NCBI RefSeq assembly: GCF_003334815.1
Contig: NZ_QOWO01000008.1
Length of the DNA stretch: 64,000 bases
Strand: one strand, 5' to 3'
Source of the DNA: Escherichia coli
Lineage (GTDB): Bacteria > Pseudomonadota > Gammaproteobacteria > Enterobacterales > Enterobacteriaceae
In this document: positions 2,913 through 32,793 of the stretch, in pieces
Numbering within the stretch: position 1 is the stretch's first letter
How the letters are laid out: the number at the start of each line of letters is the position of its first letter
Translations under genes and position numbers: made by a program
The notes under the pieces: generated by a model
What the model was told of the DNA's origin: nothing
Databases searched by the model: none
The model's input: the letters and a program-made list of their open reading frames with translations, nothing else

Positions 2913-2981
2913 AACGTCTCCGTGAATCACTGGTCGTTCACACCCCCTCTGCATCATGCAGAGGGGAATTTTTCCGGCAAA

Positions 2982-3971
2982 TTACTTACCGCCTAAACCT
3001 TTTTTCTCCAGTTCTTCTTTAAAGTTGTCACGCGTGATCAGTACCACGTCGGTAACTTCGGTAAATTTTGGCGGTTCAACGTCTTTTGCTACCCAGTTGT
3101 AAAGCATTTCGCTGGATTTATAGCCATGTACGTCCGGGCTTGGCAGCAGGGAACCGTAGAAGCCGGTTGCCTGTGCTTTAGACAGTTCGCTCACCGCATC
3201 CACACCGTTAATGCCAATGCCGATGATATCGGCCGCTTTAAAGCCCTGACCTTCCGTCGCGCGTACGCCGCCCAGCACGGTGCTGTCGTTCATACCGACG
3301 ATCAGCCAATGTTTAACTTCCGGATGTTGAACCAGCATTGAGTTGGCAGCGTCAAATGCCCCCGGGATGTCGTTAGATTTGGTAGGTACCTGATAAATTT
3401 GTTTTTCCGGGAATCCGGCCGCTTTCAGCGCATCCATAGATCCCGTAGTACGGCGGCGGGCGGTATCCAGTTCGTTGGCGGTAATCGCCATCACCGCGCT
3501 TTCTTTGACATCCCAGCCACGTTTCTGCATCTCTTTATACAGTTCCTGGCCCTGACGTTCGCCAATTTTAGTCGCCGCCATCATCACCAGCGGAACGGTA
3601 TCCATTGGCTTACCTTTGGCGTTAACAAACTGGTCATCCACGGCAATGACTTTCATATCGTAGCCACGCGCTTTCGCGACGATGGCAGAGCCGAGTTTGG
3701 GGTCCGGAGTACAAATAACGAAACCTTTTGCGCCACTGGCAGCCAGGCTGTCGATCGCGTTCAATGTTTTTTCGCCATCCGGCACGGCAATCTTAATAAC
3801 CTCAAACCCTAAATCCTTCCCGGCTTTATCGGCAAACTTCCATTCGGTCTGGAACCACGGCTCTTCCGGTTGCTTCACCAGAAAACCGAGCTTCAGGTTC
3901 TCCGCCATAGCGGATTGTGACATAACGGCTGCCAGACCAATGGCTGCCAGGGCTTTAGTAAATTTGTGCAT
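2982..3971 (-). CDS. araF: Arabinose-binding periplasmic protein
   Basis: ORF track 2982..4022; start trimmed to MHKFTKALAAIGLAAVMSQSAMA signal peptide (329 aa). Confidence 0.95.
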   Translation of the reverse strand: MHKFTKALAAIGLAAVMSQSAMAENLKLGFLVKQPEEPWFQTEWKFADKAGKDLGFEVIKIAVPDGEKTLNAIDSLAASGAKGFVICTPDPKLGSAIVAKARGYDMKVIAVDDQFVNAKGKPMDTVPLVMMAATKIGERQGQELYKEMQKRGWDVKESAVMAITANELDTARRRTTGSMDALKAAGFPEKQIYQVPTKSNDIPGAFDAANSMLVQHPEVKHWLIVGMNDSTVLGGVRATEGQGFKAADIIGIGINGVDAVSELSKAQATGFYGSLLPSPDVHGYKSSEMLYNWVAKDVEPPKFTEVTDVVLITRDNFKEELEKKGLGGK

Positions 3972-26334: not shown

Positions 26335-27540
26335 ATGTCATGGCAGCAATTCAAACACGCCTGGTTGATTAAATTCTGGGCACCCATCCCTGCGGTCATC
26401 GCGGCGGGTATTCTCTCCACTTACTATTTTGGCATTACTGGCACCTTTTGGGCTGTCACGGGTGAATTTACCCGTTGGGGCGGCCAGCTCCTGCAGCTGT
26501 TTGGCGTCCATGCTGAAGAGTGGGGTTATTTTAAAATTATCCATCTGGAAGGATCGCCATTAACCCGCATCGACGGGATGATGATCCTCGGCATGTTTGG
26601 CGGCTGCTTTGCCGCAGCGCTGTGGGCCAACAATGTCAAACTGCGCATGCCACGCAGCCGTATCCGCATTATGCAGGCCATTATTGGCGGTATTATCGCT
26701 GGTTTTGGCGCGCGTCTGGCAATGGGCTGTAACCTGGCGGCGTTCTTTACCGGTATTCCTCAGTTCTCGCTGCATGCCTGGTTCTTTGCCATCGCCACTG
26801 CCATTGGTTCATGGTTTGGCGCACGCTTTACCCTGCTGCCCATCTTCCGTATTCCCGTGAAAATGCAGAAAGTTTCTGCCGCCTCACCGCTGACGCAAAA
26901 ACCGGATCAGGCGCGGCGTCGTTTTCGTCTCGGGATGCTGGTCTTTTTCGGCATGCTGGGCTGGGCGCTGCTCACGGCGATGAACCAACCCAAACTGGGG
27001 CTGGCAATGCTGTTTGGCGTCGGCTTTGGTTTACTGATTGAACGTGCGCAAATCTGCTTTACTTCGGCGTTCCGCGATATGTGGATCACCGGACGTACCC
27101 ACATGGCGAAAGCAATCATTATTGGTATGGCGGTGAGTGCCATCGGGATCTTCAGTTACGTACAGTTAGGTGTTGAACCCAAAATCATGTGGGCGGGACC
27201 AAACGCGGTAATTGGTGGTTTACTGTTTGGTTTTGGCATCGTGCTGGCAGGCGGCTGCGAAACCGGTTGGATGTACCGCGCGGTAGAAGGTCAGGTGCAC
27301 TACTGGTGGGTCGGTCTGGGCAATGTGATCGGCTCAACCATTCTGGCGTATTACTGGGATGATTTCGCTCCGGCGCTGGCCACCGACTGGGACAAAATCA
27401 ACCTGCTGAAAACCTTTGGCCCGATGGGTGGCCTGCTGGTGACATATTTGCTGTTGTTTACTGCGCTGATGTTGATTATCGGCTGGGAAAAACGCTTCTT
27501 CCGCCGTGCGGCACCGCAGACTGCTAAGGAGATCGCATGA
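26335..27540 (+). CDS. yedE: YeeE/YedE family inner-membrane transporter (sulfur/selenium-related)
   Basis: 401-aa polytopic ORF; overlaps yedF start. Confidence 0.93.
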   Translation: MSWQQFKHAWLIKFWAPIPAVIAAGILSTYYFGITGTFWAVTGEFTRWGGQLLQLFGVHAEEWGYFKIIHLEGSPLTRIDGMMILGMFGGCFAAALWANNVKLRMPRSRIRIMQAIIGGIIAGFGARLAMGCNLAAFFTGIPQFSLHAWFFAIATAIGSWFGARFTLLPIFRIPVKMQKVSAASPLTQKPDQARRRFRLGMLVFFGMLGWALLTAMNQPKLGLAMLFGVGFGLLIERAQICFTSAFRDMWITGRTHMAKAIIIGMAVSAIGIFSYVQLGVEPKIMWAGPNAVIGGLLFGFGIVLAGGCETGWMYRAVEGQVHYWWVGLGNVIGSTILAYYWDDFAPALATDWDKINLLKTFGPMGGLLVTYLLLFTALMLIIGWEKRFFRRAAPQTAKEIA

Positions 27541-27770
27541 AAAATATCATTCCTGATTACCGTCTTGATATGGTGGGTGAACCCTGCCCTTATCCGGCAG
27601 TCGCAACCCTTGAGGCGATGCCGCAGTTAAAAAAAGGTGAGATCCTGGAAGTGGTGAGCGACTGTCCGCAGTCGATCAATAATATTCCACTGGATGCTCG
27701 TAATCACGGCTATACGGTGCTGGATATTCAGCAAGACGGGCCGACCATTCGTTATTTAATTCAGAAGTAA
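27537..27770 (+). CDS. yedF: TusA-like sulfurtransferase family protein YedF
   Basis: 77-aa ORF with TusA-like CPxP motif (GEPCPYPAV). Confidence 0.93.
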   Translation: MKNIIPDYRLDMVGEPCPYPAVATLEAMPQLKKGEILEVVSDCPQSINNIPLDARNHGYTVLDIQQDGPTIRYLIQK

Positions 27771-27878
27771 TCCCTCATTCCCGCTGTGGCCAACAGCGGG
27801 AATATCGTTGCCTCTGTACCACATAGATTTTACCCGCCCCCTCTCCTATTCTTTTCAGTGTGCTCTCAGGAGGTTGCT

Positions 27879-28547
27879 ATGTGTGGACGCTTTGCCCAAT
27901 CCCAAACGCGTGAAGATTACCTTGCGCTTCTCGCGGAAGATATTGAACGCGATATTCCCTATGATCCCGAACCCATTGGCAGATACAACGTCGCGCCGGG
28001 AACCAAAGTTCTTCTGCTCAGTGAACGTGATGAACACCTTCATCTGGATCCGGTTTTCTGGGGATATGCTCCCGGATGGTGGGATAAACCGCCGCTGATT
28101 AACGCCCGCGTAGAAACTGCGGCCACCAGTCGTATGTTTAAACCGCTCTGGCAACATGGTCGGGCAATCTGTTTTGCCGATGGCTGGTTTGAGTGGAAAA
28201 AAGAAGGCGACAAAAAACAGCCTTATTTTATCTATCGTGCTGACGGACAACCTGTTTTTATGGCCGCGATAGGTAGCACACCGTTTGAGCGCGGTGACGA
28301 AGCCGAAGGATTTTTAATTGTCACTGCAGCAGCAGACCAGGGTCTGGTAGATATTCATGACCGCCGCCCGCTGGTACTGTCGCCAGAAGCTGCGCGGGAA
28401 TGGATGCGGCAAGAGATTGGCGGTAAAGAAGCATCAGAAATTGCTACCAACGGCTGTGTGCCAGCAAACCAGTTCACCTGGCACCCGGTATCGCGCGCGG
28501 TAGGTAATGTCAAAAACCAGGGCGCGGAGTTAATTCAACCTGTTTGA
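27879..28547 (+). CDS. yedK: SRAP-domain abasic-site processing protein (SOS response-associated peptidase family)
   Basis: ORF track 27786..28547; start trimmed to MCGRFAQSQ (222 aa) with catalytic Cys2. Confidence 0.92.
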   Translation: MCGRFAQSQTREDYLALLAEDIERDIPYDPEPIGRYNVAPGTKVLLLSERDEHLHLDPVFWGYAPGWWDKPPLINARVETAATSRMFKPLWQHGRAICFADGWFEWKKEGDKKQPYFIYRADGQPVFMAAIGSTPFERGDEAEGFLIVTAAADQGLVDIHDRRPLVLSPEAAREWMRQEIGGKEASEIATNGCVPANQFTWHPVSRAVGNVKNQGAELIQPV

Positions 28548-28939
28548 TAAGCCAGGAGACTATTGATCAATAATACTGCGTCATAAGAAATCTCTATTAG
28601 ACAAAGTAGACGCTCCTTCCACATGCGCCACAAGAAACCTCTATTCCAGTGACACAATTACGCCTGATTATTTCCCTAGCCCGGAATATGAATAAAAACA
28701 TCAACAAAGATTAAATTATTCAAACGTTACTGTTGCGTCTGCGGTCGTAACAACATCCGACGTGGTGATGTGTATCAAATGAGGCCTCTGATGATCAGAG
28801 GGTTTATCGCGTATACGGATCGTGGATGGCAGAAAACTTTCAGAATCAGGTTTCCATTTTAAACCAGAAATTGAGTGAGTTTGCCCCATCCATGCCCCAC
28901 GCGGTGAGATCGGATGTAATTAACAACAGGTTACAAAAC

Positions 28940-29254
28940 CTACACCTGCATGCTCATCACTTCCTGATACGCCGCCACCAGCTTATTACGCACCTGAATC
29001 CCCATTTGCATAGAAACTGAGGCTTTTTGCATATCGGTCATCACATCGTTTAACGCCACGCCGGGTTCACCGAGAGTGAATTTTTCTGCCTGCGTGCGGG
29101 CAGCTGTTTGTGTATCACTAATGCGATCGAGCGCGGCGTGCAGCTGCCCGGCAAAACTAATGGTCGGTTGCGGCAGTGATTCCTGCGCACGCGCACTCAT
29201 CGCCGTAGCCTGTAACTGGCTGATAACCCCTTCAATCCCCTGTATCGCTGACAT
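28940..29254 (-). CDS. fliE: Flagellar hook-basal body complex protein FliE
   Basis: ORF track 28940..29284; start trimmed to [15 protein letters not shown] (104 aa). Confidence 0.95.
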
Positions 29255-29468
29255 TCTCGTCTCCCGGATAATTTCTGGTAGCAAAGCCTACCAGTAAGTC
29301 AATAAGACAAAGGCGCTAAATAACAACAAAAAAACGGGTTTATTGGCGGATAGAAAAAAACGAAAGCACAAATAATGGGAGCGTCAATTTTTCGAGTTTG
29401 CTGACCCGGGAGTGAGTCTTGTTCCACTTTGCCAATAACGCCGTCCATAATCAGCCACGAGGTGCGCG

Positions 29469-32793
<3,325 letters not shown>

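Follow-up and report, generated by a model that had tools for sequence, protein, structure and literature searches.

Loci at which EHEC prophages carry effector genes as cargo are called exchangeable effector loci. In Escherichia coli K-12, the interval between yedK and fliE is the cryptic prophage PR-G and contains yedL, the yedN pseudogene and intG. In Salmonella, SL1896 rather than yedK lies between yedF and fliE (PMC5122947). We found nothing in the literature on the yedK-fliE junction.

We analyzed a 64-kb stretch of DNA (64,000 nucleotides; the window) that comes from E. coli. In the window, yedK (+) and fliE (-) are convergent across a gap of 392 bp, and a 1,964-bp stretch around this gap is 100% identical to strain CP53. 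An earlier note on this DNA, which correctly put the separation at about 390 bp, described the gap as an empty island site. We found instead that collinear island leftovers fill positions 28564-28939, and that the only part of the gap that is not island-derived is ~16 bp at the yedK edge (28548-28563). The features of the gap and its flanks are listed in Table 1. The yedK-fliE gap is an ordinary scar at a known cryptic prophage locus. Our results make it very probable that the gap is what remains, in compacted form, of a lambdoid prophage and its cargo (PR-G in K-12), and that no piece of it needs a present-day function.

Table 1. Features of the yedK-fliE gap and its flanks, in window positions.
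Feature	Position	Strand	Description and basis
yedK	27879..28547	+	ATG at 27879; SRAP / SOS-response-associated peptidase; left flank of the gap; from the ORF and the annotation of identical or nearly identical strains
Spacer TAAGCCAGGAGACTAT	28548..28563	.	16 bp; the sole part of the gap common to strains with the alternative (DLP12-like) island, where the attR core follows directly
13 nt between spacer and R1	28564..28576	.	Specific to the island family; from comparison of the flanks of the window (W), K-12, O157 and S forms
R1 TGCGTCATAAGAAATCTCTATT	28577..28598	+	Left 22-nt direct repeat; left end of the yedL module
yedL upstream leftover AGACAAAG	28599..28606	+	blastn against K-12; junction of the 603-bp deletion at 28606|28607
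yedL downstream leftover TAGACGCTCCTTCCACA	28607..28623	+	K-12 counterpart lies beside the final codons of a pin-type invertase pseudogene
R2 TGCGCCACAAGAAACCTCTATT	28624..28645	+	Right 22-nt direct repeat
yedN/espR 3' flank leftover	28646..28673	.	Junction of the ~1.2-kb deletion at ~28670-28673
yedN/espR upstream-region leftover	28674..28775	.	Collinear with K-12 (L001 ~2936-3037), 96%
Palindrome CCTCTGATGATCAGAGG	28785..28801	.	17 bp; within integrase codons G-H-S-D-x-Q
Tyrosine integrase remnant (intG)	28787..28921	+	Last 45 codons; tblastn, residues 387-431 of IdasGreatGrand Int, 89% identity, E = 2e-24
Tandem GCCCCA motif TTTGCCCCATCCATGCCCCAC	28880..28900	+	Candidate arm-type integrase-binding site
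att core CTACACCTGCATGCTCATCA	28940..28959	.	20 bp; stop codon and last six codons of fliE
fliE	28940..29254	-	Right flank of the gap

We found by blastn that the gap aligns with the K-12 locus (L001) as three collinear pieces. The first (window 28400-28606, L001 843-1049) is the 3' end of yedK together with 59 bp from the start of the yedK-yedL spacer. The second (window 28607-28673, L001 1653-1719) is the 67 bp between yedL and the 3' end of yedN. The third (window 28670-29100, from L001 2932; 96% DNA identity) runs from the region upstream of yedN through intG into fliE. Missing relative to K-12 are 603 bp (L001 1050-1652) comprising the promoter region, gene and terminator of yedL, and ~1.2 kb comprising yedN/espR. 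The earlier note was therefore right that yedL and yedN are missing and mistaken in listing intG with them, as a remnant of intG is present in the gap. From this alignment, the yedK-proximal 126 bp are non-coding scraps of two cargo modules, yedL (a GNAT acetyltransferase) and yedN/EspR (a leucine-rich-repeat effector), and the coding parts of both modules were removed by the blunt 603-bp and ~1.2-kb deletions.

The 603-bp deletion at 28606|28607 is blunt and without microhomology. Both scraps that meet there belong to the yedL module, and therefore the window form derives from a yedL-bearing form. The junction of the yedN deletion is also found in strains that keep yedL (strain 1190). Four alleles with the window architecture were nearly invariant from 28573 to ~28750 and otherwise varied in the flanks only. 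Two exceptions occur within the invariant stretch: CAU16175 has 1 bp more at the junction, and a single base is substituted near 28722. This pattern of alleles indicates that the window architecture probably had a single origin and then spread through recombination.

To the right of the cargo scraps, the gap resembles the end of an integrated phage. In a search of a phage collection, Escherichia phage IdasGreatGrand (PP925829) matched window 28776-28959 at 87% DNA identity, including the core at the 3' end of fliE. The phage integrase is 434 aa long, and the window retains codons from its C-terminal end (Table 1). PGAP annotates an 'integrase, incomplete' at this position in other strains. The reading frame of the remnant in the window is shifted, and the window and K-12 have both lost the integrase stop codon through the same deletion of 11 bp. 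The right limit of the phage match is the 20-bp block CTACACCTGCATGGACATCA, past which phage and chromosome diverge. This core agrees with the phage attP at 18/20 positions and, at 20/20, with the fliE allele of strain FDAARGOS_1259 (L009), which contains a different island. The window contains one copy of the core, on the fliE side (allowing <=3 mismatches). The integrase remnant adjoins the core and reads towards it, the core is common to the phage attP and the bacterial target, and homology ends at the core edge. As shown by these alignments, a phage with an IdasGreatGrand-type integrase integrates into the 20-bp core CTACACCTGCATG..CATCA at the fliE 3' end, and the window retains the corresponding attL: the core inside fliE, the adjoining phage arm and 45 integrase codons. 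A lambda-like integrase frame ending ...RGFIAYTDRGWQKTFRIRFPF* was considered and dropped, as the phage match supports the intG/PGAP frame. DLP12 IntD was also considered as the origin of the integrase fragment and showed no similarity to it.

A second core, which would represent attR, was absent from the window and present in FDAARGOS_1259. The island in this strain contains an ompC-like porin gene, ybcM, ybcL and emrE, and its emrE region matches DLP12 with 92% identity. It is bounded by two 20-mer cores, one at fliE and the other (19/20) right after yedK + 16 bp, where comparison of flanks places the spacer/core junction at ...GGAGATTAT|CTACACCTGGATGGACATCA. Judged by their placement, these duplicated 20-mers are a classical attL/attR pair. 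The window (28563|28564) and FDAARGOS_1259 (7027|7028) cease to match precisely at the left border of the 20-bp core, and the attR core is absent from the family to which the window belongs. The boundaries of the prophage are at ~28563|28564 and 28939|28940. Since the attR beside yedK is gone, the remnant cannot excise. We found no homology between 28564-28680 and either the P arm of the phage or the attR region of the alternative island.

The phage arm retained in the window contains the tandem GCCCCA motif. Near-copies of this motif are found in the other arm of the phage attP (L021 4314-4334) and beside the attR core of FDAARGOS_1259, and it is probably an arm-type integrase site. The 21-mer TTTGCCCCATCCATGCCCCAC also occurs, without any difference, near pepN in Salmonella, at the end of a Gifsy-2-like prophage (L017 1304-1324). 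Its presence there as well as in the attL arm of E. coli suggests that the integrases involved may have a common arm-site specificity.

The palindrome in the gap had been described as an inverted repeat at 28779..28797. It is present, although at 28785..28801. Its arms were equalled in 6/300 dinucleotide-preserving shuffles of the gap, which is marginal. The palindrome is perfect in the window allele only, owing to a 1-bp deletion and one substitution, and is imperfect in K-12, in the related phage (CACTCTGATGCTCAGATGG) and in three strains of the same architecture (GACACTCTGATGTTCAGAGGG in these other alleles). Based on these comparisons, the palindrome is an accident of pseudogene decay. It lies 2 bp to the left of 28803|28804, where homology between the two island families stops. 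This position is no more than the endpoint of the different internal deletions in the integrase genes of the two families.

We found the window architecture in 803 of 5426 complete E. coli genomes (~15%). In an even sample of 60 rows of the locus, 11/60 were of the window type, 11/60 of the K-12 type, 1/60 had yedL only, 3/60 were of the S type (without yedL; see below), 3-4/60 had the O157-type tandem (espR3/espR4), and ~29/60 had the alternative DLP12-like island. When an artificial junction was used to search E. coli for genomes that truly have nothing between yedK and fliE, the best rows were all of the 392-bp form. For annotation, this means that in ~15% of complete E. coli genomes the interval is a degraded remnant of a PR-G-type prophage, and neither native intergenic DNA nor an empty attB. 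As a genomic scar, the gap itself is of small biological weight.

Other islands at the locus were diverse. Approximately half of the complete E. coli genomes (e.g., 55989 [L006], PSS-10 [L007] and FDAARGOS_1259) contain a DLP12-like remnant with emrE-ybcL-ybcM, with or without the ompC-like porin gene. Members of this group at times have an IS200/IS605 tnpA/tnpB element right at the yedK stop, or a truncated yedK. The yedK of PSS-10 is 99.9% identical to that of the window, yet it is followed by the other island. Therefore, yedF/yedK-fliE is a recombination hot spot with at least two alternative island families. In the O157-type strain 140 (L004 4149-8200), espR3 and espR4 arose from a 1,958-bp tandem duplication, the junction of which joins the integrase remnant to yedL +148. 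A 2,070-bp contig from a metagenome-assembled genome (MAG) labelled 'Collinsella sp.' (JAIJJM010000587.1, L012) is 94% identical to the K-12 yedL-yedN-intG island, and we therefore regard it as E. coli contamination in the MAG bin.

The earlier note had also called attention to two 14-mers in the gap. Both exist, with the first at 28585..28598 rather than 28586..28599 and a spacing of 47 bp rather than 46. We found that they are parts of a longer repeat, R, of 22 nt, the two copies of which (R1 and R2) are identical at 19/22 positions. Only 1/300 dinucleotide-preserving shuffles of the gap gave a repeat that scored as well, and R is therefore more than a chance repeat.

We compared the positions of R across six architectures. 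In K-12, R1 is located ~59 nt upstream of the yedL start (L001 1020-1041). In K-12 and the O157-type strains, R1 and R2 are 650 bp apart, with R2 between yedL and the 3' end of yedN/espR. The S-form, seen in five genomes (L005, L008 and L022-L024), is without yedL and has a single copy of R, TGTGTCACAAGAAACCTCTATT. Homology of the S-form to the other forms starts exactly at R2, and its single copy is a hybrid, in which the left (yedK) flank of R1 is joined to the right flank of R2. Matches to R were found in 77 metagenome contigs. The spacing was 47/48 bp, as in the window, in 25/77, and ~650 bp, with yedL present, in 26/77. A single hybrid copy with complete flanks from yedK to espR, as in the S-form, was found in 7/77, and an S-type left junction combined with a tandem duplication in 3/77. 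The remainder were cut at a contig end (14/77) or were chance matches in unrelated sequence (2/77). One metagenome contig (L084) has the duplication junction of strain 140 together with the S-type left end (no yedL, single R).

Based on this distribution, the repeats mark the ends of the yedL module and not those of the island. Two copies flank the module where it is present, and one hybrid copy is found where it is absent. R1 and R2 are both <=100 bp from the yedK end and bracket yedL only. The suggestion in the earlier note that the repeats are attachment remnants, to be checked by alignment with K-12, thus held in one respect: they do bracket an insertion/deletion point, that of the 650-bp yedL module, although neither is at the fliE end of the island.

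We found few relatives of R or of the yedL module away from this locus. R was not found elsewhere in the 64-kb window. A search of one genome per species yielded one match by chance and one to a MAG contig contaminated with E. coli, and no others. Neither R nor the yedL module was found in phage genomes or viral contigs. The module was not found outside the yedK-fliE locus save for one diverged paralogue, which is on the conjugative IncF plasmid pSCU-111-1 (L010 6001-6560) and is 77% identical. Homology to this paralogue starts inside R1, where the plasmid reads CATAAGAAATagaTATTAGACAAAGAT, and the R1-like sequence is followed by AGACAAAG. These two elements at the upstream boundary are more conserved than the remaining upstream region, and R1 + AGACAAAG is therefore an old part of the yedL module. 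The plasmid has R-like sequence on the left side of the gene only, with no right-hand copy, and no SRAP remnant upstream. Elsewhere, we found the module neither between copies of these repeats nor as a free circle, and a circular or tandem junction of the yedL unit was absent from metagenomes. Directly past the yedL terminator in K-12 (L001 1624-1659, minus strand), the sequence encodes ..FPAGDK*, which matches the C-terminus of PinE, a pin-type DNA invertase. On inspection by eye for an attC site as in an integron gene cassette (core sites RYYYAAC...GTTRRRY), the hairpin downstream of yedL resembles an intrinsic terminator. In e14-like prophages (L011, L014 and L016), a 3' fragment of yedL occupies the same position beside an intact pinE. 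One of these, the 2.6-kb L011, is recorded as a 'plasmid' but has the look of an e14-like prophage fragment that was either excised or mis-assembled.

We suggest that yedL came or went through recombination across the 22-nt sequence, either by a Campbell-type (single-crossover) event or by exchange between short homologies, and that the window allele would later have lost the interior of the module, leaving R1 and R2 47 bp apart. We favor entry of yedL into an S-like allele over its loss by deletion between R1 and R2, because a chance 19/22 match is far likelier to have been chosen as a target than to have pre-existed as a pair around yedL. For a 650-bp donor, a 19/22 match somewhere in the genome is expected, and two matches pre-existing around yedL by chance would be very unlikely. 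At positions 8 and 15 of R, the bases are T,T in R1 and the plasmid paralogue, and C,C in R2 and the S-form; these states would fit an exchange with the crossover in the first 7 nt. As to direction, no outgroup with R was found, and the distance between yedK alleles is much the same whichever forms are compared (~96%). The tandem-duplication variant with the S-type left junction (L084) fits insertion and deletion alike.

Several other explanations could be offered for the gap and its repeats. If the gap were an unoccupied attachment site, with the repeats as att remnants of the whole yedL-yedN-intG island, then the absence of yedL and yedN and the reality of the repeats would be as expected. 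However, an integrase remnant and other island DNA are present in the gap, the two repeats share a single end of the island, the att core proper differs from them in sequence and coincides with the 3' end of fliE, and the attP region of the phage is without R. The K-12 alignment and the phage attP match refute this explanation, which we consider extremely improbable. It is also highly improbable that R1 and R2 are a functional protein-binding array or regulatory element of the yedK-fliE intergenic region. In the 77% identical plasmid paralogue, conservation of R1 + TATTAGACAAAGAT exceeds that of the adjacent sequence, and R1 could therefore belong to the promoter region of yedL. However, no yedL is left in the window to be regulated. 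R1 and R2 are 650 bp apart in yedL-bearing strains; their 47-bp pairing, which the earlier note had thought might reflect such an array, is due solely to the later 603-bp internal deletion and therefore gives no support to a designed array. R is absent from the rest of the window and from the genomes searched for other species, and the alleles are invariant because they share a recent origin rather than because they are constrained. We found no promoter or terminator consensus in the gap, nothing notable in its RNA fold, and no match with E <= 1 in a covariance-model search of 27000-30000 against Rfam 15.

Two further explanations concern the origin of R. The repeats might be att-like sites through which a dedicated site-specific recombinase would move a small yedL cassette (~650 bp). 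R has sharp limits at 22 nt, there are alleles both with the module (occupied, two copies) and without it (unoccupied, one hybrid copy), and the bases seen at positions 8 and 15 agree with an attB x attP exchange whose crossover fell within the first 7 nt. However, no recombinase gene is associated with the module, which is found at one locus only, and the lack of a right-hand copy on the plasmid, of a circle junction in metagenomes and of R in viral contigs argues against such a cassette, as does the dissimilarity of R to real crossover sites of the neighboring invertase family. When R was considered as a pix/gix/hix crossover site (~26 bp, with inverted 12-bp half-sites like TTCTCCCAAACC), the pix arms of the e14-like prophage L014 (CTTCTCCCAAACCAAGGTTT) proved dissimilar, with AAACC in common and no more. 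We know of no convincing match between R and a dif/Xer-like site. On balance, a dedicated cassette appears quite unlikely, and a miniature cassette of 650 bp mobilized through R by a recombinase acting in trans (e.g., from a resident prophage) appears very unlikely. Were the latter true, the R1/R2 pair in the window would be a disabled cassette site. With its 22-nt repeats, yedL is a neat minor case of a module that has short repeats as its borders, and it would gain interest only if the module were mobile. It is also very unlikely that the repeats are relics of a duplicated 3' end of a Pin/Gin-type DNA invertase pseudogene on the minus strand. The minus strand of R1 reads G-A-S-T-L-S-N-R-D-F-L-*, which by eye is suggestive of GVSTLYQRFP in Pin, a genuine pin tail (FPAGDK*) adjoins R2 in K-12, and the 9-mer GAAACCTCT is common to the repeat and the 3' end of pinE. 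However, local alignment to pinE was not significant (p ~0.04-0.2 relative to shuffles), and a search for a closer invertase found none.

Homologues of YedK were found as prophage cargo in Salmonella and Citrobacter, with 83-84% identity. In Salmonella enterica (L017 and L018), the order at a Gifsy-2-like end is pepN-DinI-GtgE-SRAP followed by a convergent LRR/NEL effector gene. In Citrobacter sp. R56 (L019), an icd fragment and a kinase gene precede the SRAP gene at an e14-like end. Given this, yedK may itself be ancient island DNA.

The locus in the window thus compares with four known systems. One is PR-G of K-12, with its intG pseudogene (RefSeq annotation of NC_000913), which has the same location and the same integrase remnant. 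In contrast to K-12, the window has further lost yedL and yedN, its integrase remnant is frameshifted, and only non-coding scraps of the cargo are left. Like a lambda-type attL in the 3' end of a host gene, as for IdasGreatGrand, the fliE side combines an integrase 3' end, an arm and a 20-bp core (87% identity), and the core restores the last codons of fliE. In contrast to an intact IdasGreatGrand-type prophage, only the 45 integrase codons remain, attR and the body of the prophage are gone, and the site is inert. The effector cargo loci at lambdoid prophage ends in Salmonella are similar in that an SRAP gene is convergent with a gene for a leucine-rich-repeat T3SS effector near the prophage end, and the Gifsy-2-like end and the window have the identical 21-nt GCCCCA motif. 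They differ in that the effector gene is deleted in the window, and in that yedK lies outside the core-bounded prophage in E. coli strains with the alternative island. Finally, the two copies of R that flank the yedL module and the one hybrid copy at the site without it resemble the products of Campbell-type integration or of deletion mediated by short repeats. In contrast to those systems, the repeats here are only 22 nt and imperfect, no associated recombinase was found, and the interior of the module in the window was lost by a separate blunt deletion.
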